Sequence record: OR896825.1
Length of the DNA stretch: 64,000 nucleotides
Direction: 5' to 3' (one strand)
Source: Escherichia phage Delraymugoa
The translations under genes were made by a program, and so were the position numbers. A model generated the notes under the pieces. The model worked only from the letters and a program-made list of their open reading frames with translations, was not told where the DNA came from and did not search any database. Positions 2,777-54,310 of this stretch are shown piece by piece (within the stretch, counting starts at the first letter, position 1; each line of letters opens with the position of its first letter).

Positions 2777-5683
2777 ATGGCAGATTTAAGCAGAATCCAA
2801 TTTAAACGTACTAGCACTAAAGGCCGTCGACCTGATGCTGGTACGATGAATCCGGGGGAATTGGCAATCAACCTTGCGGATCAATATCTTCTTACTAAAA
2901 ATGATTCCGGTGCTATTATCAATTTAAGTTGTCCTCCGGTTTATGACAGCGATGTTACAATGGCGGGTAAGGTTAAAGGAAATAATTATATTTTAAGTAA
3001 AACCGCTAATTATTTTGAAGACCAAACCGCGCGAGATCTTAATTATTTTGGTGCGTTTCGACCGAATAATGCTGATGGTTGGTCTAACTTGATTCTGAAC
3101 ATTCCTCATCCCAGCGGTAAAGCACACGGTCGCGGGTTTGAATTTGAATATGGTTCTAGTTCCTCTCAGGTTAAAACCTATGGCTTTGATAAGGATGGTA
3201 ACAAGAGATTCAGCTTTCGCATGTATCACGAAGGTGATAAACCTACCCCATCGGAATTGAACGTTTATAGCAAACAAGAAGTTGACCGCATGTTTGTTAA
3301 AAACGTTAAAATGTCAACTCCTGCTGATGTAAGTAGAGGATATTTCAAAATTGCTACCGCTATGATCCCACAGCAAGGAAGAATGGCATTTATTCGTATC
3401 TATGGTGGTAATGGATATAACGTAAACTATATGGATCAAGTTGACTTTGTAGAAATCGTGATTCGTGGTGGGAATGGAAATCCTAAAGGTGTTAGTATTG
3501 CCGCATATCGACGAAATGCTTTAAATCAGCTTGAAGTATTTGCTATTAATACATCTGGTGATAACTATGATATCTATGTAAAATATGGTCGATACACCGA
3601 TAACGTTATTGTAGAATTTGGAAAAACGGTCGATGTTAATTTAACGGTTCATGATGTTCCGGCTTTTTCGGAAGCAAAACCTGCTGGTACTACCTTTGAA
3701 GGTCGTATTATTACCATGTTCAACACCGAAAACAAAGCAGGAACGTTGATGTTTGATAATAACTCACAAGCAACCTATGATATTGTGAGTCTTAGCAATG
3801 CACCTGATAATAGCCGAAATTATCTGCGTAAATTCCGTAGCAAAGCGAATGAAACAATATGGCATGAAACTGTTCAAGGTGATGTGTATCGTTTGGCTAC
3901 TGGTTCCACCGACCAAAAAGAAGTATTAAAAATTGTTGGTAGTGATGGTTTATTTGTCAATAGACTTCATCTGCAAGGCAATAACGCGATTCGTATGTGG
4001 CGTCCTACTGGTTGTAGTAACTATTTTGAATATATGGATCAGCGAGACGGGGCTAATAAACGTCAAGGGTGGTTTGGTTTTGGTTCTATAGAAACCAACG
4101 ATTTTCAATGGTATAGTGACGAAGGTAAAAACTTTGTTAAGCTAGAAGCAAGTGGTCAAGTATCTTTAAGCGCAGGTGCAACCAAAATTGTATACACTAA
4201 TGGTCAATATGTAGCTGCCAATTCTGATGCATACCGTATGATCTTTGGTAATTATGGTGCATTCTGGCGTAATGACGGCATTAAAGTTTATCTTCTGTCT
4301 ACTGCCGAAAATGATAGATTTGGTGGCTGGAACGGCAACCGACCATTCATTTACGATTTAACAACTGGTAAAGTTACTTTAGGTGGCGACGGTAACGAAG
4401 GCGCATTAGTTCTCGAAAGAGATAGCCGTGCTGCCCGTTTTGTGGGTGACATTTATGTCGGTAACGGAATGTTAACCTTTGATGCCGGACGATTAAATTC
4501 TCGCGATTACTTCCGGTTTAATCATTGGGGTGATAGCAATAACGCGCGTGATAACATCTTACAGCTTGACGATAGCATGGGTGCACACTTCACCACTGAA
4601 CGTACTTTAGCAACTGGTGCGATTAAAACTAAATTCTTCGGTGATTTGGAATCTGCTGGTCAAATTAAATGGGGTAAAGGGACCGCCGCATCTACGTTTA
4701 CTCTACGTGTATGGGGTAACGATAGTCGTAAACAAATATTTGAATGCGGCGATGAAAGCGGGTGGCATTGGTATACCCAACGCGCGGGCGGTCCGGATAC
4801 TTCTGCAATTGAGTTTGCCATCAACGGTACTGTTAAGCCTCAAGCAATTCACACTGGCGGTAATATCACGCTTAACGGTGCTGATATTGAATTTAAACGA
4901 AGCGGTAACAAGCATTTATGGTTTAGAGATCCGAACGGCTTAGAGTTGGGTCTGTTGTACTGCGATGATGCTGGTGTTATGCGTATTCGTGGGGAGAAAT
5001 CGACCGAAGTATGGAAATTCTCAGCAAAACAGATTCATCTGGAAACTGGTACTGCCGGAAATGGTGTAGGCTTGCTTCGTGGTGCTGTAGGTGGTGGCGC
5101 ATGGACTCAATGGCGAGATCGTGGCACTGGCTTGCAGGTTGATTGTCAGCAATCTGAAAACTCAGCGCATAACGTATGGAGAGCTACGCATCAAGGAAAA
5201 TACCACATCGCGGCAATGGGTGTACACGTTCCTGGTGGTACTATCGGAAATGCTATGGTGCGTATTCATGTACACGATGCAACTTTTGACTTTAGCGCAA
5301 CTGGTGATTTCCAAGCAGGTCGTAACGGTAATTTTAACGATGTGTACATTCGTTCTGATGCTCGCCTGAAAATCAATAAGGAAGAGTATAAAGAGAATGC
5401 CACCGATAAAGTTAATCGCTTGACGGTATACACCTATGACAAGGTTAAATCTTTAACCGACCGTACTGTCATTGCTCATGAAGTTGGTATTATTGCTCAG
5501 GATCTTGAGAAAGAATTGCCAGAAGCAGTAACAACCTCGAAGATCGGCGACGGTGATACACCAGAAGAGATCTTAACAATTTCTAACTCTGCTGTCAACG
5601 CTCTTTTAATTAAGGCGTTTCAGGAAATGAGCGAAGAATTGAAAGCCGTTAAAGCTGAACTAGCGGAACTTAAAAAGAATTAA
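2777..5683 (+). CDS. 37: long tail fiber distal subunit gp37-like with C-terminal intramolecular chaperone (peptidase S74-type) domain
   Basis: N-terminus RIQFKR..RP..GELAINL..DSG.II matches gp37; C-terminus has SDARLKINKEEYKENATDKVNRL autocleavage-type motif plus coiled-coil tail. Confidence 0.85.
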   Translation: MADLSRIQFKRTSTKGRRPDAGTMNPGELAINLADQYLLTKNDSGAIINLSCPPVYDSDVTMAGKVKGNNYILSKTANYFEDQTARDLNYFGAFRPNNADGWSNLILNIPHPSGKAHGRGFEFEYGSSSSQVKTYGFDKDGNKRFSFRMYHEGDKPTPSELNVYSKQEVDRMFVKNVKMSTPADVSRGYFKIATAMIPQQGRMAFIRIYGGNGYNVNYMDQVDFVEIVIRGGNGNPKGVSIAAYRRNALNQLEVFAINTSGDNYDIYVKYGRYTDNVIVEFGKTVDVNLTVHDVPAFSEAKPAGTTFEGRIITMFNTENKAGTLMFDNNSQATYDIVSLSNAPDNSRNYLRKFRSKANETIWHETVQGDVYRLATGSTDQKEVLKIVGSDGLFVNRLHLQGNNAIRMWRPTGCSNYFEYMDQRDGANKRQGWFGFGSIETNDFQWYSDEGKNFVKLEASGQVSLSAGATKIVYTNGQYVAANSDAYRMIFGNYGAFWRNDGIKVYLLSTAENDRFGGWNGNRPFIYDLTTGKVTLGGDGNEGALVLERDSRAARFVGDIYVGNGMLTFDAGRLNSRDYFRFNHWGDSNNARDNILQLDDSMGAHFTTERTLATGAIKTKFFGDLESAGQIKWGKGTAASTFTLRVWGNDSRKQIFECGDESGWHWYTQRAGGPDTSAIEFAINGTVKPQAIHTGGNITLNGADIEFKRSGNKHLWFRDPNGLELGLLYCDDAGVMRIRGEKSTEVWKFSAKQIHLETGTAGNGVGLLRGAVGGGAWTQWRDRGTGLQVDCQQSENSAHNVWRATHQGKYHIAAMGVHVPGGTIGNAMVRIHVHDATFDFSATGDFQAGRNGNFNDVYIRSDARLKINKEEYKENATDKVNRLTVYTYDKVKSLTDRTVIAHEVGIIAQDLEKELPEAVTTSKIGDGDTPEEILTISNSAVNALLIKAFQEMSEELKAVKAELAELKKN

Positions 5684-27785: not shown

Positions 27786-28421
27786 TCAATCGAATGTAGA
27801 AAGCAAATGTTTTGTTTCTTTCAGTTGTCGTTCAAGATTTTTGCGTTTCTCTTTAAGTTGCATTTTAGCATTATTTCGCTCTCTTGTAACCTCTTTATCA
27901 ATACTCTTATTCCAGTTATCAATATCAGAATAAGTTGGCATACCCAATTCTAGACCTAATGCGGTTGGATACAAGGTAACAGTCCATAAACCGCTAATCT
28001 TCTTAAATAGGTCGGGGTGTAGTGTACTACCTACATCTTCCGGTGTCAACTCTTTTTCTTCTTTCAGTGGTGGGATCTCGTCATATGGTTCCAGTGCATT
28101 TACTTTAATATCAGATACCTCATCAAAGAATCCGCGTACATCCGCAGGAAATACACAAGCAATTTCCCAACCGTGATCACGCAGAGAAGTAATATTTTTC
28201 ACTCCCCCACCATGTGTGATGATTGATGTGACATTGCCATCAAGGTCCACCGAATTTACGAGAAATGGCTTATCGTCTGTCAGATCATTATAAAACTGTG
28301 CTTCGGCTGTAGTCATCTCCAGAAACAGATCTCGGATCGGACGACCATCAGGTGCGTTACCTTCCTTGAGAGTATAAAAGCGACTTACGATCCATTTTGG
28401 CGGTAAAGCATTAGCGATCAT
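27786..28421 (-). CDS. hypothetical protein (211 aa)
   Basis: ORF between gp41 and gp61. Confidence 0.5.
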   Translation of the reverse strand: MIANALPPKWIVSRFYTLKEGNAPDGRPIRDLFLEMTTAEAQFYNDLTDDKPFLVNSVDLDGNVTSIITHGGGVKNITSLRDHGWEIACVFPADVRGFFDEVSDIKVNALEPYDEIPPLKEEKELTPEDVGSTLHPDLFKKISGLWTVTLYPTALGLELGMPTYSDIDNWNKSIDKEVTRERNNAKMQLKEKRKNLERQLKETKHLLSTFD

Positions 28422-43339: not shown

Positions 43340-44809
43340 CTATTCCCCATTGCCATTATACTTTCTTTGCTTAGTTATCCACACTCTAACCATCTCTACA
43401 GATTCGCCGTCAGACGGATCAAGAGTTTTTCCCTTTTTCTTCATGCGGTACTTAAATCCGTTAAATCTTGCATTCTCTTGCTCGTTAAAATCGAACATCT
43501 TTTTAAATGATTTTCGCCCTTTACGCTCACCACATTCTAGCGGAATCATTCGGTCTGTTATTACATTGGCATTAGGTAGAAACGTTTTTAGATAATCTAC
43601 CAACGCCCAATCAGGAACATATAGATTAACATTCTCCTTGCTCTCGTTGTCTCTCAGGTTACAACGCAAACATAATTGAAATGCTGGTTCCAGATAATCA
43701 GACACATGACGCGCTTTCAAAAACTCATTTGTCGGGAGATCACAACTATTAGCAAGACCTTTTAAAATATCAATCTCCCATCGTTGAGGGTTAAAGCTGA
43801 ACATCACAGCAACATTTTTATGATGAATGTAAGAGTTAAGACCATAAGACCCGTAAGGTATCCGCTCACCAATACCATTTGTACACGCTTCACGGTCCCG
43901 ATTCACGGTATAAATGAAGTCATCGCCACATTCATTTTTAACCATATCAACAAGACGTTCAAAGGTATTGTTTGTTTCTGACTGGTGACGCGACCATCGT
44001 TCAGAGTCCGTCATAAGGATGATATTAACTCTATCTGTATTTTTATACTCTTTGAAATATAGTCTGGATTCTAGCGCACTCGGAACAAAATCGCAATTTG
44101 CATAGTATCGTAGATACTTCCCACTATATGTATCAAAGAGATTTGCACATGCTATCGTAACCTTTTTAAAGTCTCCCCACGTACCGTGTTTGTTATCGTT
44201 CAAGAAAACAATTTTCGACCCATTCTTCCGGTGTCCTTCGTTATGTTTTACCATAACGTTGATTTTCTTCTCTAATAACGCCTCATAAAGCCCTCTAAGA
44301 GAAGAATCGATCATATCAGTACCATCCTTCGCACTTTCTATCTTTTCTTTGATAGCGGCCTTCTCAGAGTCTTTTAGAACTAAGTTCTGTAGGCATTCCG
44401 ATTCGTCGGCGATTGGTTCGCAATGCTTCGTGATAAGTTCAAGATTAGACTTAAACGGATACTCATTAAATTCAACCAGTTGAGGAACTTCATCAATGTA
44501 AAGAGCATATTCACCAAACATTTTTGAACGTTCCATATTAGATAACGCTGTATGTGTAATGAATATCACATCAGCACCGTCTTTAACTGATTGCATTATC
44601 GACGCTTGCACTGTCTTAAGGCTTCTTAGTCTTGTGCTATCAATCAAGACAGCACGACCGCCCATTCTTTTAAACTTATTGTAAGATTGTTCACTTAAAA
44701 CACGAGATGGCGAAGCAATAACCGCTTTTTCTTTTGTCTCTAGGACGTGGGAAAGTATAGCATCAGTTTTCCCTGCCGCTGGCAATGCGATTAATGTTTC
44801 AATCTTCAT
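43340..44809 (-). CDS. P-loop NTPase with helicase-like N-terminal domain (489 aa), function unknown
   Basis: Walker A LPAAGKTD, motif Ia-like VIASPSRV, Walker B-like YIDEV in first 110 aa; C-terminal 370 aa without recognisable motifs; no T4 counterpart at this position. Confidence 0.6.
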   Translation of the reverse strand: MKIETLIALPAAGKTDAILSHVLETKEKAVIASPSRVLSEQSYNKFKRMGGRAVLIDSTRLRSLKTVQASIMQSVKDGADVIFITHTALSNMERSKMFGEYALYIDEVPQLVEFNEYPFKSNLELITKHCEPIADESECLQNLVLKDSEKAAIKEKIESAKDGTDMIDSSLRGLYEALLEKKINVMVKHNEGHRKNGSKIVFLNDNKHGTWGDFKKVTIACANLFDTYSGKYLRYYANCDFVPSALESRLYFKEYKNTDRVNIILMTDSERWSRHQSETNNTFERLVDMVKNECGDDFIYTVNRDREACTNGIGERIPYGSYGLNSYIHHKNVAVMFSFNPQRWEIDILKGLANSCDLPTNEFLKARHVSDYLEPAFQLCLRCNLRDNESKENVNLYVPDWALVDYLKTFLPNANVITDRMIPLECGERKGRKSFKKMFDFNEQENARFNGFKYRMKKKGKTLDPSDGESVEMVRVWITKQRKYNGNGE

Positions 44810-45117: not shown

Positions 45118-45276
45118 TTACTTAATGATACTTACTTTACCAGATCCGTGACAATGAGCACAACACCCATCACCACGCAATCCTGTTCCGTTACAGTGTT
45201 TACACTTCTTCAACGGTAAAGCCATTATAGCAAATAAAGCAATAATGAATACCGAAACTAAATTCTCAATAATCAT
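45118..45276 (-). CDS. small membrane-anchored zinc-ribbon protein (52 aa)
   Basis: Below the track threshold; hydrophobic N-terminus then CKHC..CCAHC; overlaps upstream stop by 11 nt. Confidence 0.35.
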   Translation of the reverse strand: MIIENLVSVFIIALFAIMALPLKKCKHCNGTGLRGDGCCAHCHGSGKVSIIK

Positions 45277-45535
45277 AAATCGCCCTCAGTTCTTTATAGC
45301 CTCCAATGTGCTCGTTGTCAATGAATATCTGGGGGTATACAAATCGGAGGCTCTTTGAGTTCAGCCTCCCCGCCAGTTCTTCAATCATATCACGGTCGGG
45401 AATAATGTCAACCCCGACCTGCTTGAATACTGGTTTAAGTGTATACGGAATACCCAGATCATCCAGTAGCTTCATTGCACTAATACAACCATAACAATGA
45501 TAAGCCTCTTTCGGTATGCCGTATATCTCGATCAT
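45266..45535 (-). CDS. glutaredoxin/thioredoxin-like protein (NrdC/NrdH family)
   Basis: CYGC active site and C-terminal PQIFIDNEHIGGYKEL as in T4 nrdC-type thioredoxin; sits at the T4 nrdH position. Confidence 0.75.
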   Translation of the reverse strand: MIEIYGIPKEAYHCYGCISAMKLLDDLGIPYTLKPVFKQVGVDIIPDRDMIEELAGRLNSKSLRFVYPQIFIDNEHIGGYKELRAIYDY

Positions 45536-46008
45536 TTTTCAGCCTTTAATCTTTCTAGTTCTTCTTCCAGTTCCTTGATCCGTTGGTCACGTTCAAAGTC
45601 ACGCTGCAACTTAGTGGCGAATACTCGTTTAAACTGATTGTAATCATCGATTTTAAACACTTCTTCTTCGCCATAGCGACGCACAGAAACTTCGTAGTTA
45701 TTGAAGAATTGTTGCATCATTGCTTCGGATGATAGCTCTGCTGATACCACTTTAAAATATTGATCTTCTGTAGGCGAAAACCAATTACAAGCATAAAGAT
45801 AAACCTTTTCATTGTCTGGACACTGGTAAGCCTTACCATCGATTTCAATCACAGAAACATATTCAGGTATACTAGATGAATCAATAGCTAAGACTTTAAA
45901 CGCACGGTCCCCGATAAACTCGGAGATCACACGATTCGCATCACTGGTTGCAAATGCTTTACGCGCTTGTTCGTTTTTCCACTGATAGGTCATGCCAACA
46001 ACAAACAT
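45532..46008 (-). CDS. paralog family A member (158 aa; one WKxE..DRKFF-type domain plus coiled coil)
   Basis: MTYQWKNEQARKAF...VIEIDGKAY pattern shared with next three genes; start moved to ATG with GAGG Shine-Dalgarno. Confidence 0.5.
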   Translation of the reverse strand: MFVVGMTYQWKNEQARKAFATSDANRVISEFIGDRAFKVLAIDSSSIPEYVSVIEIDGKAYQCPDNEKVYLYACNWFSPTEDQYFKVVSAELSSEAMMQQFFNNYEVSVRRYGEEEVFKIDDYNQFKRVFATKLQRDFERDQRIKELEEELERLKAEK

Positions 46009-46009
46009 A

Positions 46010-46834
46010 TTACCAACCTCGCTCTTTACCAATCAAAAATTCAACTTCACGACGTTTAATGTCTTCTTGAAGGTCTTTAATCTTCTGGCGATCTTGCATG
46101 ATTTCATCCATCTTGTCAAGTGCCGCAATGAAATCATCGAAACGTTCAAAGGTTTTACCTTCATTTGCTTCGCCAAATTTAACCATTGTCAGGCCGTAAC
46201 GACTACTAAACAGACGTTTCAACTGTCCAACGATTTTAGAATCAGTGGTTATAACTTCCAATTCTTCTACTTCACGAAAGAATTTTCTATCAGAATCAAT
46301 AAACCAGCTAGTTCCTTTATGGTCTCTATCTTCGGTTGCGCTCATTAGAGTATGGTCTTTACCATCAATTTCAATTACATCAATTTGCCCACATGGACGA
46401 ACATTTTTAACAGTAAAAGGTCTATAATTTATTGCTCGTGCAATAACATAATTAAGGTTAGATACGTTTTCAGCATAATGGCAGAAGTCGGTCATAGCAT
46501 TCACATCTTTCCAAGTATAAGTTTTACCAACTTCCCATTTCTGGGGAACTTCTTCAACTTCACGAAAGAATTTTCGATCGAATGGACTAAAGAAATATGT
46601 TGCAGTCCAAATGTCTTTTCCTGTAGCAGTTTTCGCCGTATGATAAACACCGTCTAGCTCTATTGCATTAATCCAACCGTTACCCTCGATCTCGATGATG
46701 GTAAATGGCTTGTCACCAATAGCTGCACTAATATCGCTGTTAAGCGGAGAAAGAACACCTTCTCCGTTAGTAATAAACTCAGTTTTAGCGTTTTCATCTT
46801 TCCAAGTGTAAGTTTTACCAATTTCCCATTTCAT
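46010..46834 (-). CDS. paralog family A member with internal tandem duplication (274 aa)
   Basis: Two copies of WE.GKTYTWKD...IEIDG...DRKFFREVEE within one ORF. Confidence 0.55.
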   Translation of the reverse strand: MKWEIGKTYTWKDENAKTEFITNGEGVLSPLNSDISAAIGDKPFTIIEIEGNGWINAIELDGVYHTAKTATGKDIWTATYFFSPFDRKFFREVEEVPQKWEVGKTYTWKDVNAMTDFCHYAENVSNLNYVIARAINYRPFTVKNVRPCGQIDVIEIDGKDHTLMSATEDRDHKGTSWFIDSDRKFFREVEELEVITTDSKIVGQLKRLFSSRYGLTMVKFGEANEGKTFERFDDFIAALDKMDEIMQDRQKIKDLQEDIKRREVEFLIGKERGW

Positions 46835-46846
46835 AATATATTCCCC

Positions 46847-47311
46847 TTAACCGATTTTATCAAGTTCGTTTAATGCTTTCTCAGCTTCCTGTATAGCTTG
46901 CACTCTTTCCGGCATTTTGTCAAGAAAATCTTTCAACTCTTCAAAACTGGAGATATGACGCAAGGCGTTAGCACCGATAGCCGCATGTGATTTGCATTCA
47001 AAGCGGATTTTATAATTATCCATCGCCAATTTGAGAAGATCAATTAATTTAGATTCTTCTGGAATAATAATTTCTTCAAATCTGCTACGGTCATGATCCA
47101 GAAACCAACAAGATAGACCTACATCGGTTGAACTCATATAAGTTCCATCATGAAGATAAACAGACCGCACGTATCCTTTTTTCGCATCAACCGACGCAAC
47201 TTTAAACGGTAATCGCAGATATTTCAAATAATCAACATCATACCATTTAAAAAATTGGTTTGCATCTTTTACATCTTTCCACGCATAGGTCTTACCAGCT
47301 TCCCATTTCAT
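46847..47311 (-). CDS. paralog family A member (154 aa)
   Basis: MKWEAGKTYAWKDVKDANQF N-terminus; start moved to that ATG. Confidence 0.5.
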   Translation of the reverse strand: MKWEAGKTYAWKDVKDANQFFKWYDVDYLKYLRLPFKVASVDAKKGYVRSVYLHDGTYMSSTDVGLSCWFLDHDRSRFEEIIIPEESKLIDLLKLAMDNYKIRFECKSHAAIGANALRHISSFEELKDFLDKMPERVQAIQEAEKALNELDKIG

Positions 47312-47315
47312 AATA

Positions 47316-47843
47316 TCATCTCTCATTTTTGATACGTGATTCTAATTGGATCATACGGTCGCGCGTTTGTTTGTATTCTCGGATAGCACCGATCCGGCTA
47401 GGCATACCATCCAGTACGCTCTTAATACCTTCTAGGGTAGTAATTTTGGCAATGCTATTATGTAACCCCATCTTATCGATCAACTGAATGTCGTAGGCTT
47501 CCATAAGCAGACCCAGGCGTTCTAAAGTTAGGTCTTCTTCTTTTTCTTCTGAATCTGGAATCTTAGGTTCAATAGTAACTTCGGTAAAGAAACGACGCTC
47601 ACCCGACCAAAACCACACACCAGAACAACCAATAGGGGATTCTTTTAACGTCATAGAGTCGAAATCACTACCAATAATAGTAATTTCTCTAACATCACCA
47701 TCATCGTCAAGGTCTTCTACCCTAAACGGGCGACCAGCCAACAAGTCAACAATACATCTGTTAATAGACGACGAAAATTTAGTCAGTTCGGCTTTCGACG
47801 CTTCGCATTCAATCTTGTAAGTTTTACCAACTTCCCATTCCAT
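47316..47843 (-). CDS. paralog family A member (175 aa)
   Basis: MEWEVGKTYK N-terminus with GAGGTGA Shine-Dalgarno; ..GERRFFTEV motif. Confidence 0.5.
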   Translation of the reverse strand: MEWEVGKTYKIECEASKAELTKFSSSINRCIVDLLAGRPFRVEDLDDDGDVREITIIGSDFDSMTLKESPIGCSGVWFWSGERRFFTEVTIEPKIPDSEEKEEDLTLERLGLLMEAYDIQLIDKMGLHNSIAKITTLEGIKSVLDGMPSRIGAIREYKQTRDRMIQLESRIKNER

Positions 47844-47853
47844 AATAATCACC

Positions 47854-48357
47854 TCAAATAATTTTCACTGGAATACTATTAACAATCTTGTATTGTACTT
47901 GATTGTCAGATCCCCGCCACGGCTTCTTCGTTGGCATATCTTTAATATAACGCCCATCGATGAACATGTCAACTGATTCTACAATTTTTCTTTGCTCATC
48001 ATTCAATTGGTCAAGGGTATAACCGGACCATAGCCAAATATCTTTATTTGGCATCCATGATTTTACTTCATCGATGATCCGCTGTACACCCTTTAAATTG
48101 CGTTTATACAGTGGATCGCCACCTAAGAATGTTAGCCCCTGAATAAAATCAGGTCTAAGCAGGTCCAGAATCAATCCCATTGTATCATCGGTGAATGGTT
48201 CCCCGTTCTTAGGATTGAGTAGGCTAGCATTAAAGCAACCATCACATGCGTGTGAACATCCGGTAACGTAAAGGGAGACTCTCACTCCCTCACCGTTAAC
48301 CATATCACAATCTTTAATATCGGCATAGCGTAGTTTGCCGTATGTATCAGAACTCAT
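47854..48357 (-). CDS. nrdG: anaerobic ribonucleotide reductase activating protein NrdG (radical SAM)
   Basis: CSHACDGC radical-SAM cluster motif; about 167 aa; adjacent to nrdD. Confidence 0.85.
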   Translation of the reverse strand: MSSDTYGKLRYADIKDCDMVNGEGVRVSLYVTGCSHACDGCFNASLLNPKNGEPFTDDTMGLILDLLRPDFIQGLTFLGGDPLYKRNLKGVQRIIDEVKSWMPNKDIWLWSGYTLDQLNDEQRKIVESVDMFIDGRYIKDMPTKKPWRGSDNQVQYKIVNSIPVKII

Positions 48358-48499
48358 ATTCAATTACCCCGAACTCGTTTACAATCTGCGCTTTATAGTA
48401 ACCACCGCGAGATGCTAATAGATAAGCTGGGCTTAGGTATTCGTATTCACGGATTTCTACTTGTGCGTTTTCAGTTTCCCAAATCAGTAAAGTCCACAT
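48347..48499 (-). CDS. small hypothetical protein (50 aa)
   Basis: Start moved to ATG (MWTLLIW) with GGAGAA leader downstream of promoter. Confidence 0.35.
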   Translation of the reverse strand: MWTLLIWETENAQVEIREYEYLSPAYLLASRGGYYKAQIVNEFGVIEYEF

Positions 48500-48541
48500 A
48501 TTTGATTCTCCTGTAAAGTTGTATCTCGTCTTGATGAATAT

Positions 48542-48570
48542 AGTATAGGGGATCTCGCGATCCCCGTCAA
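48542..48570 (-). promoter_or_regulatory. sigma70-type early promoter with GATC-containing palindromic spacer
   Basis: TTGACG-N17-TATACT; spacer GGGGATC-TCGC-GATCCCC carries two GATC sites. Confidence 0.55.
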
Positions 48571-48574
48571 GCAT

Positions 48575-49694: not shown

Positions 49695-49722
49695 ATTATA
49701 CATTAGCTAATCATGTTGTCAA
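49695..49722 (-). promoter_or_regulatory. sigma70-type early promoter
   Basis: TTGACA-N16-TATAAT immediately downstream of the nrdD terminator. Confidence 0.55.
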
Positions 49723-49726
49723 CACC

Positions 49727-49760
49727 CCAAAACGAAAAAGCCGACCCTTTCGGATCGGCT
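49727..49760 (-). terminator. rho-independent terminator after nrdD
   Basis: AGCCGA-UCCGAAAGGG-UCGGCU followed by UUUUUCGUUUU. Confidence 0.65.
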
Positions 49761-51672: not shown

Positions 51673-52167
51673 TTATTTTACCAGTTCTGCTAATTCTTTT
51701 TCTTTAGCTTCTAGTTCAGCTTTAAGCTGTTTAATCTCTTGTCGCTTCTTATTAGCGGCTTCTTGCTTACTATTTCGGATAACCTGATCTAGATACAACT
51801 CCCAATCCTGAATATTTTTGATAATGTAACCGTCAACATTAATTGGTCGGAGATTCAGTACAGCTTCCAGTTTAGTCGCAAAAACTTTAATTGCTGGCGT
51901 GAAGTATTCATATTCGTTATCTTCAAACCAATAACCTAGACTTGCATTATCAATACGAAGACGAAGTTCAAGATCAAGGTCTTTATCTTCGGTGTAAAGA
52001 TCTTTCACCTGACCCAGCGAACTAACAACAACTTTAAAACGAATTTTATCTACACCACCAAACACATCAGTAAGGATACCAGCAATTGAGCTATTAGCGC
52101 AAGATTGGTCGCTGAATGCGTCAAGGTTTTCTTTAGTTACAGTATACCAAACATCTTGTACCCACAT
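51673..52167 (-). CDS. hypothetical protein with C-terminal coiled coil (164 aa), possible family B relative
   Basis: Own promoter; C-terminus QEIKQLKAELEAKEKELAEL. Confidence 0.45.
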   Translation of the reverse strand: MWVQDVWYTVTKENLDAFSDQSCANSSIAGILTDVFGGVDKIRFKVVVSSLGQVKDLYTEDKDLDLELRLRIDNASLGYWFEDNEYEYFTPAIKVFATKLEAVLNLRPINVDGYIIKNIQDWELYLDQVIRNSKQEAANKKRQEIKQLKAELEAKEKELAELVK

Positions 52168-52197
52168 AATATAATCCTCTCGTTGTTAAGTGGGAGT

Positions 52198-52225
52198 ATT
52201 ATAGCATACTCCCTTCGCATGTCAA
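52198..52225 (-). promoter_or_regulatory. sigma70-type early promoter with stem-loop (PeSL-like)
   Basis: TTGACA-N16-TATAAT; -10 inside GGGAGTA..TACTCCC hairpin; -35 overlaps upstream stop codon. Confidence 0.6.
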
Positions 52226-53400
52226 GCACTAACTTTTTTCTTTACTGCTTTCACCTTCTGGCGAATTGCTCGAATCTCTTCGATCTCTTTTTCAGTATCT
52301 TTAACAATTTCTTTGCGATTCTGAATATCTTTATCGAGATTATCATCAAGTTTAGGCAGCATGTCAATCAAGAACTTTTTAAGGTCTTTCAGGTTGCGAA
52401 TAACAGTACCTTCACCCATTACCGCCACGCCTACACCATCCGGCAGATCACCAAACAGTTTAACCAGTTCAGACAGATGATCATGATCTTCTAGTGCTTC
52501 TTCCGGTTCAGATGGCAGTTCAACAAAGTAATAACGTTCATCATTGCTGATCAGGTGATACCAGCAAAGCCCAAAAGATTTAGGAGTATATTCTACACCA
52601 CCAACTTCAACTGCATCAACACTTCCGAAAGAATCTACTTTAGTTACCTTAAATCCATGTTCCAGCGTTTTAATAATTTCAATAACATGACTGGATACGG
52701 TTTCAGTATTAAACCAATGAGGCAAATTATGTGGATTTGGCTTGTATCGTTCGCCTACTTTAAATCTCTGACCACGCTCTTGCATACGGACATATTCAAC
52801 TCGCGTGATTTCCGCGAAGTATTCAAATTCGCTACCGTCAAACAAGCAATTCCATTGATCACAAAAACGGTCCGCCTTGACGGTTTCACCTTTCGCGGTG
52901 ATCATGGTAGCTGATCCGTGCAATTCTTCTTCAACTAAAAAGCCATATTCGACAAAATCAACAAGTTTCATGGCTTCTTTGTGCTCTGGGTCATGCTCTC
53001 CCCAGAATCGCTTAAATTCTTGCAAACCTTCTGGGGTAAACGAATAACATTTACCTTTTTCAAAGTAAGTCGGCATTGCATCCTCTTTCTTGTTCATCGC
53101 TTCGTATGCCTCTTTTGAGATACGTTTAAAGTATTTGCGCTCATTGTGCATAATCATAGTAGACCAATAATAAACGATATCCTCAGCGGAATAAACTACA
53201 TCTCCAGCTTCAATAGTAATAACATGACCGTGGTCATCTTTTTCTAATACTTTAAAGCCCTTTTCTACGATTTCAGCAACCCGAATATGACCACGGCGCG
53301 AAGCATCGGTCAGAATAATTGAATAGCGAGAAAAGTCTAGAAACTCATCTTTACCGCCTTCACGGAATGCATAGTAATGACCTTCAAAGAATTTAGCCAT
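52222..53400 (-). CDS. paralog family B member with three internal repeats (392 aa)
   Basis: Repeats containing GFKV(L/T)..D..G.V and (N/D)ER(K/Y)YF motifs; Lys/Glu-rich coiled-coil tail. Confidence 0.55.
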   Translation of the reverse strand: MAKFFEGHYYAFREGGKDEFLDFSRYSIILTDASRRGHIRVAEIVEKGFKVLEKDDHGHVITIEAGDVVYSAEDIVYYWSTMIMHNERKYFKRISKEAYEAMNKKEDAMPTYFEKGKCYSFTPEGLQEFKRFWGEHDPEHKEAMKLVDFVEYGFLVEEELHGSATMITAKGETVKADRFCDQWNCLFDGSEFEYFAEITRVEYVRMQERGQRFKVGERYKPNPHNLPHWFNTETVSSHVIEIIKTLEHGFKVTKVDSFGSVDAVEVGGVEYTPKSFGLCWYHLISNDERYYFVELPSEPEEALEDHDHLSELVKLFGDLPDGVGVAVMGEGTVIRNLKDLKKFLIDMLPKLDDNLDKDIQNRKEIVKDTEKEIEEIRAIRQKVKAVKKKVSA

Positions 53401-53431
53401 AATATAATCCTCTCGTTGTTTAGACGGGAGT

Positions 53432-53460
53432 ATCTTACTACTCCCGTTTCATCATGTCAA
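53432..53460 (-). promoter_or_regulatory. sigma70-type early promoter with stem-loop (PeSL-like)
   Basis: TTGACA-N17-TAAGAT; CGGGAGTA-N6-TACTCCCG hairpin. Confidence 0.6.
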
Positions 53461-54023
53461 GCGTTAAATGACTTTTGGATCTCTTTCAGTTCAGCTACTT
53501 TATCGGCGCTGAATTTAGCGTAGGCATCATGTCGAATAATTTCACTTTCAAGAAAGGTTTCCAGCCGAGATCTATTTTCAATAAGGAACTCTTTCAGGTC
53601 TTCCGCGTTCTTGATAAAGATTTTATTGTCGGTAATGTCATCTTCAATCGCAAAGGAGATAGAGCGAACTTTACCAAACAAGTTAATCAGATCTTCCAGA
53701 GATTCTTCTTTCTTAACTGGTTTCATTTCTTCAAACTGCTTTTTAGTGATGCGTTTAAAGTATTTGCGCTCGTTTGCAGCAATCAGAACAGATGCACCTT
53801 CATACCCATGAGTTTCTACCAGATACACACGCCCCATCGCATCAACAGTGAGAACTTTAAAGCCGTTACAAAGCACGTCATACAAGAACTTATTATGTTG
53901 CGGACATCGCTTGATAAATTCTGCGGCTGTTTCTGCATTACGGAAAGTGTAATAACGACCTCGTTCAAAAACAGCATCATTTGAAGACTTAGCCGGATAC
54001 AATTTATACGTTTTCTGTACCAT
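53457..54023 (-). CDS. paralog family B member (188 aa)
   Basis: GFKVLTVDAMGRV...NERKYFKRITKKQFEEM; start moved to ATG with GAGGA Shine-Dalgarno. Confidence 0.5.
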   Translation of the reverse strand: MVQKTYKLYPAKSSNDAVFERGRYYTFRNAETAAEFIKRCPQHNKFLYDVLCNGFKVLTVDAMGRVYLVETHGYEGASVLIAANERKYFKRITKKQFEEMKPVKKEESLEDLINLFGKVRSISFAIEDDITDNKIFIKNAEDLKEFLIENRSRLETFLESEIIRHDAYAKFSADKVAELKEIQKSFNA

Positions 54024-54037
54024 AATATAATCCTCTA

Positions 54038-54310
54038 TCATTTCACTAATTGAACAGCACGGAACAGAATGCGCTCACACGGAAGCAGCATAAATTCCCA
54101 ACGCGGATCAAAGTCTTTAGCGGTGTATGTTTTCCCATCAACCGAGATTTCACTTACATAACCAACAGGTGACACTTTAAGAACAGTAAACCCATTCTTG
54201 ATGACTTCGTAGGTATCTTTCACCCCTTCGTATTCATCATCTAAGAAGTCTTTATGTGCTTGCTCAGATTTAAAAACATAGGCCACACCGGATTTAAACA
54301 TCTTACGCAT
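54038..54310 (-). CDS. paralog family B member (90 aa)
   Basis: GFTVLKVSPVGYV motif; start moved to ATG (MRKMFKS) with AAGGAG Shine-Dalgarno downstream of promoter. Confidence 0.45.
   Translation of the reverse strand: MRKMFKSGVAYVFKSEQAHKDFLDDEYEGVKDTYEVIKNGFTVLKVSPVGYVSEISVDGKTYTAKDFDPRWEFMLLPCERILFRAVQLVK

Follow-up and report, generated by a model that had tools for sequence, protein, structure and literature searches.

Tandem genes between nrdG and nrdH of Krischvirus phages are a GoF-family expansion with exchangeable β-barrel cassettes

Analysis of a stretch of 64,000 nucleotides from Escherichia phage Delraymugoa (sequence record OR896825.1, here called the window), which is a segment of a Krischvirus genome, led to the assignment of four consecutive genes, g1 to g4, located between nrdG and an nrdH-like gene. 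In the annotation of phage RB49 the corresponding genes RB49p051 to RB49p048 have the same boundaries and are all listed as hypothetical. The N-terminal domain of the encoded proteins is a homologue of the N-terminal small β-barrel of the T4 protein GoF (ComC-alpha), and the four genes go back to an old tandem expansion within the GoF protein family of T4-like phages. Within Krischvirus the barrel is an exchangeable cassette which is carried on constant C-terminal modules. The best joint explanation, to which we give a probability of about 0.55, is an old, modular expansion of the GoF family with swapped barrels that acts most likely on host RNA metabolism. The genes of the locus, in the order of transcription, are:

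47854-48363, minus strand: nrdG, the upstream flank (Pfam Fer4_12, E 2e-43)
47316-47843, minus strand: g1 (RB49p051), 175 amino acids; one GoF-like barrel (47559-47843), acidic linker and helical C-terminal module
46847-47311, minus strand: g2 (RB49p050), 154 amino acids; barrel (47054-47311) and C-terminal module
46010-46834, minus strand: g3 (RB49p049), 274 amino acids; barrels d3a (46544-46834) and d3b (46253-46543) and C-terminal module (46010-46252)
45532-46008, minus strand: g4 (RB49p048), 158 amino acids; barrel (45733-46008) and Lys/Glu-rich helical C-terminus
45266-45535, minus strand: nrdH-like glutaredoxin gene, the downstream flank (Pfam Glutaredoxin, phrog_22)

The original prediction, made from the bare sequence, described tandem paralogous genes between nrdG and the gene at the nrdH position, and four co-oriented minus-strand genes carrying five copies of the domain are indeed present. 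They are separated by only 1-12 nucleotides and each is preceded by a Shine-Dalgarno sequence; g1 starts 10 nucleotides from nrdG, with which the array is probably co-transcribed, and the stop of g4 overlaps the start of the nrdH-like gene. Across bases 45200-48400 the identity to RB49, TB34 and SAP is 99.0-99.3%, and matches to the array region come from 57 phage records, all of them Krischvirus-type coliphages and Shigella phages. In T4, the equivalent slot is occupied by gene 55.8 alone (70 amino acids).

The five N-terminal copies align over ca. 90 residues. With E-values scaled to a database of 1e8 residues, d3a and d3b are 50% identical (E 3e-22), and the remaining pairs show 28-35% identity (E 1e-6 to 3). 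The pair formed by the g1 and g2 barrels is weak by itself (E = 3), but significant links chain all five copies, so that the possibility that the copies are not significantly similar, raised with the prediction, does not hold. The internal duplication predicted for g3 is also present: its unit measures 291 nucleotides, and the 30-nucleotide 3′ ends, which lie 288 nucleotides apart, share 93% identity. Four of the five copies, with g4 as the exception, share 67-75% DNA identity over their first 69 nucleotides. Two details of the earlier description hold in part. The quoted motifs WExGKTYxWKD, IEIDG and DRKFFREV fit d3a and d3b best but are degenerate in g1, g2 and g4, and the coiled coil said to follow every copy corresponds to four C-terminal helical modules, not five, because d3b directly follows d3a.

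The relationship to GoF emerged from profile comparisons. The array proteins are full-length members of phrog_5347 (g1, E 1e-66; g2, 2e-59; g3, 3e-92; g4, 1e-60), with nearly all 165 profile positions covered, and give weaker matches to three PHROG families labelled 'goF mRNA metabolism modulator'. Matches to phrog_622 were found for g3 (3e-18), g1 (2e-10), g4 (3e-7) and g2 (2e-3); T4 GoF itself matches phrog_622 (E 5e-38) and also cross-matches phrog_5347. A profile built from the five array copies scores T4 GoF at 26.6 bits, and a profile of 12 copies, which includes further barrels of the window described below, raises this to 43 bits. The 12-copy profile detects Frd.2 weakly (14 bits), does not detect MotB.1, and scores the g1 barrel, from which it was partly built, at 98.7 bits. 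Residues Y9, F20, F43, V45, G52 and F89 are conserved in all 12 copies of the window. The 43-bit score and the PHROG cross-matches show that the domain, which the original prediction did not recognise from canonical T4 proteins, does occur in one of them, as the N-terminal domain of GoF. Whether the repeats would match a well-characterised T4 family of known function has a divided answer, since GoF is a named T4 protein but one with no known function in its wild-type form. The label 'goF mRNA metabolism modulator' on the related PHROG families is transferred from T4 genetics and is not an assayed activity. Among the PHROG families compared (5347, 622, 3710, 5804, 8944, 13003 and 2980), phrog_5347 has no functional annotation, unlike the GoF-labelled families which its members cross-match. 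No Pfam or NCBIfam family scored above threshold for any of the four array proteins, and an Rfam scan of the whole window gave nothing at the gathering score.

Structural models of the array proteins were obtained with AlphaFold2, in which the barrels have pLDDT values of 80-94. The models show a bent SH3/Sm-like small β-barrel of five antiparallel strands with an insert of two helices between strands 1 and 2. In the g2 model (mean pLDDT 82.7), strand 1 (residues 8-11) is followed by helices 14-22 and 27-33, strands 2-4 (36-41, 48-52 and 58-60), short helices 61-64 and 72-77, strand 5 (78-81) and the linker, after which the C-terminal part consists of a helix (89-100), a β-hairpin (104-120) and helices 123-131 and 133-153. 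In the g3 model two barrels (pLDDT 80-89) precede a C-terminal module of lower confidence, which ends in a helix of 40 residues. The closest solved structures, all with low Z-scores, are the Mib repeat, FeoA, the IdeR SH3-like domain, the UvrD/PcrA Tudor domain, EF-P, CarD and the NusG KOW barrels. The likeness to FeoA is at the fold level only, as none of the four proteins is a sequence member of the Pfam FeoA family. The modelled domain does not correspond to the stricter definition of the LSm fold, since it has no Sm N-terminal helix. Four of the five array barrels are acidic (net charge -4 to -8); that of g2 has a net charge of +1.

All four array proteins have an acidic linker and, separate from the barrel, a helical C-terminal module composed of a helix, a β-hairpin and a long Lys/Glu-rich helix; a similar helix-hairpin-helix-coiled-coil layout recurs in many other members of the family. 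Homology of the module to the C-terminus of GoF, which visual likeness had suggested, found no support (hhalign probability 0.2%). The linkers vary in length between alleles. In an evolution experiment with T4 in a gut-on-a-chip (PMC9271167), an in-frame deletion of 21 bp in the likewise acidic linker of goF reached a frequency of 72%, with no known phenotype.

Comparison of the array among near-identical phages revealed which part of it evolves quickly. At the DNA level these phages match the window at 97-100% throughout the region and its flanks, with sharp drops, to 35-73%, over barrel-coding blocks only. In phage kvi the drop is confined to the g2 barrel (39-72% DNA identity) and in Brandy to g4 (52-87%); in E26 the g2 barrel and g4 diverge and d3b is deleted, and in JK32 d3b is replaced (35-54%). 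In phage Whisky, the barrel of p057, a gene of the second array described below, is swapped and the C-terminus is identical. At the protein level, divergent barrels of g1, g2, g3, g4 and p057 are 40-56% identical and the structured C-terminal modules 96-100%. When the alleles were counted across the 57 genomes by tblastn of each barrel against the phage collection, the identity distributions were bimodal. The g2 barrel is window-like in 28 of the 57 and only ca. 43% identical, on a C-terminal module of 100% identity, in the other 29. For g4 there are at least three allele classes (35, 9 and 13 records), g1 barrels fall into classes of 50, 1 and 6, and d3b into classes of 52 and 5. The g3 protein occurs in forms of 274 amino acids, of 277-281 amino acids (with a different second barrel in most) and of 174-185 amino acids with a single barrel, and the combination of alleles differs from phage to phage. 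The exchanged segments are bounded on one side by the first codons of the barrel, which are conserved, and on the other by the linker, and the swaps likely arise by homologous recombination through these conserved stretches; the conserved 5′ barrel codons (the 69-nucleotide repeat) and the conserved C-terminal coding sequence are the likely homology arms.

These results change the picture of a rapid local amplification that had been proposed for the array. The paralogues are only 22-35% identical (50% for d3a and d3b) and the array is present in all 57 Krischvirus genomes; the expansion is therefore not recent, and among related phages the copy number varies only for the second barrel of g3. 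The fast-evolving element is the barrel, not the number of genes. The broader expectation of host-interaction-type plasticity is borne out by N-terminal domains that are swapped as cassettes among near-identical phages, in a slot that T4 fills with a single different gene. One further variant of the locus comes from a Logan contig (SRR11185258, positions 3001-3938), in which the array is collapsed to nrdG, a chimera of 154 amino acids, g4 split into two open reading frames, and nrdH. The chimera joins the N-terminal half of g1 to a variant d3b/g3 C-terminal end at a 'DDD' microhomology and was seen in this single contig. It may have arisen naturally, by recombination with deletion, or be an artefact of assembly across the repeats, and was not used as evidence.

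Two elements with consensus promoter sequences precede GoF-family genes in the window:

49695-49760, minus strand: PeSL-like terminator-promoter element (for the PeSL concept see PMC2839356 and PMC4122927); a terminator with a 9-bp stem just after nrdD, then a perfect sigma-70 promoter (TTGACA-16-TATAAT, 49695-49722)
52198-52225, minus strand: second perfect sigma-70 promoter (TTGACA-16-TATAAT), preceding p057

Behind the first element lie the co-oriented genes p055, p054, p053, nrdG, g1-g4 and nrdH, in the orientation of the early genes, and its promoter is likely the early promoter of this unit. RB49 has no motA gene and no recognisable middle promoters (PMC1524935), which makes early transcription of the array likely.

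What the proteins may do has to be approached from T4, and the RNA-metabolism reading is favoured because it corresponds to the only phenotype known for the GoF family. The GoF(D25Y) variant post-transcriptionally stabilises mRNA carrying the gene-41 leader and prolongs its half-life, and both D25Y and G84R allow T4 to grow on rho mutants (PMC12152347). In our alignment D25 of GoF falls where the chain turns from the first insert helix into the second, and G84 in the short helix that precedes strand 5. The residues aligned with D25 are F in g1, W in g2 and Y in d3b, and those aligned with G84 are R in g1 and K in both d3a and d3b, so that D25Y and G84R create in T4 residue types that are natural in the array.

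Our best guess is that the array proteins are dimeric adaptors that target RNA metabolism or something else in the host. Early transcription of the genes, along with nrdG and nrdH, would start at the consensus promoter behind nrdD. Each protein would dimerise through its long C-terminal helix, much as GoF and MotB.1 occur as monomer plus dimer in vitro (PMC12152347), and the dimer would present two barrels, or four in the case of g3. The barrel would serve as recognition module, and the helical insert that separates strand 1 from strand 2 would be part of its working face; this insert is placed topologically where SH3 domains have their RT loop, and the GoF D25Y exchange maps to it. Possible partners are an RNA-handling host factor, such as Rho, RNA polymerase or the degradosome, or RNA itself, and the paralogues and alleles may cover different variants of the target.

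Several observations weigh against this proposal. Even wild-type GoF has no established biochemical function, and in the reporter assay in which D25Y was active its effect was small (PMC12152347). Family-wide, both suppressor positions vary (25 is aromatic in 17 of 84 sequences, 84 is K/R in 30 of 89), so the coincidence seen there is weak evidence. The acidic character of four of the five array barrels argues against generic RNA binding. Dimerisation is what we infer for the array proteins, and the low pLDDT of the C-terminal module in the g3 model (38-77) weakens it; early expression is read from matches to consensus promoters only.

The host-interaction or anti-defence role suggested with the original prediction, taken here as inhibition in counter-defence or host takeover by binding of other proteins without involvement of RNA, is a possible though less probable account. 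Here the barrel would bind a polymorphic protein of the host or of a competing phage, for example a defence sensor, and the C-terminal module would oligomerise or contact a common effector. The discrete barrel alleles, which occur at intermediate frequencies and are reassorted among near-identical phages, resemble the pattern at arms-race loci, and the array occupies a variable slot that is filled differently in T4. The nearest folds (SH3-like FeoA, Mib, Tudor, CarD-RID and KOW) are mostly protein-binding modules. Such a purely protein-binding role in counter-defence or host takeover is nearly as likely as one in RNA metabolism, because of the acidic barrels, these fold relatives and the arms-race-like allele pattern. 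However, no similarity to characterised anti-defence proteins was found, and the only functional data on the family concern mRNA stability and rho. PADLOC profiles, which cover defence and not anti-defence proteins, gave only noise with the array proteins, below threshold (CARF_PIN, E 1.6e-3, 15.7 bits, over the linker and helix). Literature searches returned nothing on the RB49 array, no paper tying GoF-family genes to defence systems or anti-defence, and none reporting them in essentiality screens.

The cassette pattern can be taken further, to a combinatorial recognition system, which we regard as improbable. In such a system the coiled-coil modules would form homo- or heterodimers, and the phage population would shuffle barrels as specificity cassettes against a polymorphic host target, which could be variant surfaces of Rho, an RNase or RNA polymerase, or defence-system sensors. 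T4 GoF would then be a low-activity form in which D25Y and G84R restore residue types natural in g1 (F/R) and d3b (Y/K).

Doubtful, and the least supported of the three functional readings, is the proposal that the proteins are true Hfq-like (LSm) RNA chaperones in which rings of barrels bind RNA and remodel or protect phage transcripts. It draws on the term 'LSm-like' used for the family by Kim et al., who list Hfq among the structural relatives of GoF (PMC12152347), and on the prolonged mRNA half-life caused by GoF(D25Y). The models, however, have two helices between strands 1 and 2 instead of the Sm N-terminal helix, the domains are acidic, and AlphaFold3 gave no confident GoF hexamer (Kim et al., PMC12152347); tandem barrels in one chain together with a coiled coil suit dimers better than closed rings. 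Chance similarity or functionless decay of duplicated open reading frames, for which only the weakness of some single pairs (such as g1/g2, E = 3) can be cited, is already refuted by the chained pairwise E-values (to 3e-22) and profile scores of 74-109 bits, by the finding that in the five other arrays read (RB49, kvi, Brandy, E26 and JK32) all four reading frames are intact and have a ribosome-binding site, by alignment of 55 of the 57 Krischvirus records across at least 80% of the region, by the 96-100% conservation of the C-terminal modules and by the confidently folded models.

The array is not the only location of the family in the window. With the 12-copy profile, seven more barrels were found in five genes outside the array, giving 12 barrels in nine genes at three loci. 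Four of these genes, with six barrels, form a second GoF-family array between nrdD and gene 49 (51673-54310, minus strand), and the fifth stands alone:

51673-52167, minus strand: p057 (RB49p057 homologue); one GoF-like barrel and a coiled coil
52222-53400, minus strand: RB49p058 homologue, 392 amino acids; three tandem barrels (78-87 bits) and a C-terminal module; phrog_8944, E 3e-210; RefSeq label 'frd.2 / goF mRNA metabolism modulator'
53457-54041, minus strand: RB49p059 homologue; one barrel and a C-terminal module; RefSeq label 'goF mRNA metabolism modulator'
54038-54310, minus strand: RB49p060 homologue, 90 amino acids; barrel only
27786-28421, minus strand: Dc2 (RB49p021 homologue), 211 amino acids; GoF-like barrel (83.6 bits) and helical C-terminus

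The RefSeq labels of the RB49p058 and RB49p059 proteins thus already include the name of GoF, and the Dc2 protein of phage ECD7 was also matched by Foldseek. Dc2 lies directly downstream of the helicase gene 41, and GoF(D25Y) is known for restoring the mRNA levels of gene 41; the two genes may be neighbours by chance. When the complete RB49 genome was scanned in six frames, no barrels beyond the 12 came up, and at the T4 position RB49 has no goF, motB or motB.1.

Beyond these genomes, a search of 1.84 billion representative proteins returned 86 clusters at E ≤ 1e-3. Eighteen of them (466-5094 amino acids) were rejected as spurious since they consisted of repeated partial matches to profile positions ~24-62 only; among five of these long matches checked with Pfam, four were bacterial proteins with Ig, cadherin or SpaA repeats, and the fifth had no Pfam match. 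The remaining 68 clusters contain proteins of 58-392 amino acids, several with two or three barrels. Foldseek gave 65 viral models at E ≤ 1e-3, and those with names are nearly all from T4-like phages; the fold occurs in phages of Morganella, Cronobacter, Pectobacterium, Aeromonas, Proteus, Edwardsiella, Enterobacter, Citrobacter and Klebsiella and in phAPEC8. A word-indexed protein search with the 12-copy alignment gave eight matches, and the same search with the g2 C-terminal module alone gave none. Tblastn with two metagenomic multi-barrel relatives (P0095 and P0109) found no cultured phage.

The GoF/MotB.1/Frd.2 family with an 'LSm-like fold' was described by Kim et al. in 2025 from three single-barrel T4 proteins, the genes of which are dispensable in laboratory hosts (PMC12152347). 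The array proteins share with T4 GoF the homologous N-terminal barrel of ca. 90 residues, the order of barrel, acidic linker and C-terminal domain, and the neighbourhood of FeoA- and IdeR-type folds; for GoF, the nearest solved structures are the SH3-like domains of FeoA and IdeR, and Hfq (PMC12152347). As in T4, the genes lie among those of the early region of a T4-like phage. Krischvirus, however, lies outside the Tevenvirinae, the subfamily named in that paper, and the window has 12 barrels in nine genes compared to the three single-barrel proteins reported for T4. Proteins with two or three barrels, tandem arrays and polymorphic cassettes set the window apart from the T4 family; Kim et al. 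mention neither arrays nor cassettes, nor RB49, Krischvirus or duplications. The C-terminal module of helix, hairpin and long coiled-coil helix also differs from the C-terminus of GoF, to which it has no profile similarity. The array is an expanded, multi-barrel, cassette-swapping branch of this recently described family.

Among other small barrels, the domain was compared with the SH3-like FeoA, the C-terminal domain of DtxR/IdeR, the Mib repeat of Mind bomb, the Tudor domain of UvrD/PcrA, CarD-RID, the KOW domain of NusG/Spt5 and domain I of EF-P. With Hfq and the Sm/LSm proteins it has in common a small, bent five-strand barrel, and a relative, GoF(D25Y), that affects mRNA stability.

The cassette exchange resembles the PeSL shuffling described for the hyperplastic regions of RB49 and phi1 (PMC2839356, PMC4122927) in that it occurs in the same group of phages, replaces modules between near-identical genomes and concerns a transcription unit headed by a PeSL-like terminator-promoter. 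Unlike in PeSL shuffling (Arbiol et al. 2010), the swapped unit is a domain within a gene and not a PeSL-flanked whole gene; nrdG and nrdH are not mentioned in PMC2839356, which does not treat the array locus. Exchange of domain cassettes within genes extends the picture of hyperplastic-region evolution, which has so far been based on shuffling of whole genes. Ever since the rho/nusD studies GoF has puzzled geneticists, and not until 2025 was it recognised as part of a family. The array results do not yet show a new mechanism, but Krischvirus arrays provide material for finding the ligand of the barrel: a single genome with 12 natural variants, proteins with several barrels, alleles swapped in nature while the C-terminal scaffold stayed constant, and copies that already have the residue types of the T4 suppressors.

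Three neighbouring genes of the window, all on the minus strand, are of separate interest. The RB49p044 homologue (43340-44809, 489 amino acids), present in all Krischvirus loci examined, starts with a P-loop-like 'PAAGKT' sequence; the only backing for this is a weak DEAD/helicase flag from Pfam in the homologue on a metagenomic contig. A DUF7170 protein (48347-48574, 75 amino acids, Pfam E 2e-17) overlaps the start of nrdG and is annotated in RB49 as a shorter version of 50 amino acids. The RB49p046 homologue (45118-45276), an open reading frame of 52 amino acids, begins with a hydrophobic segment, after which come two CxxCxGxG motifs (CKHCNGTG and CAHCHGSG) of the DnaJ-type zinc-finger repeat, and looks like a tiny membrane-anchored zinc-ribbon protein.

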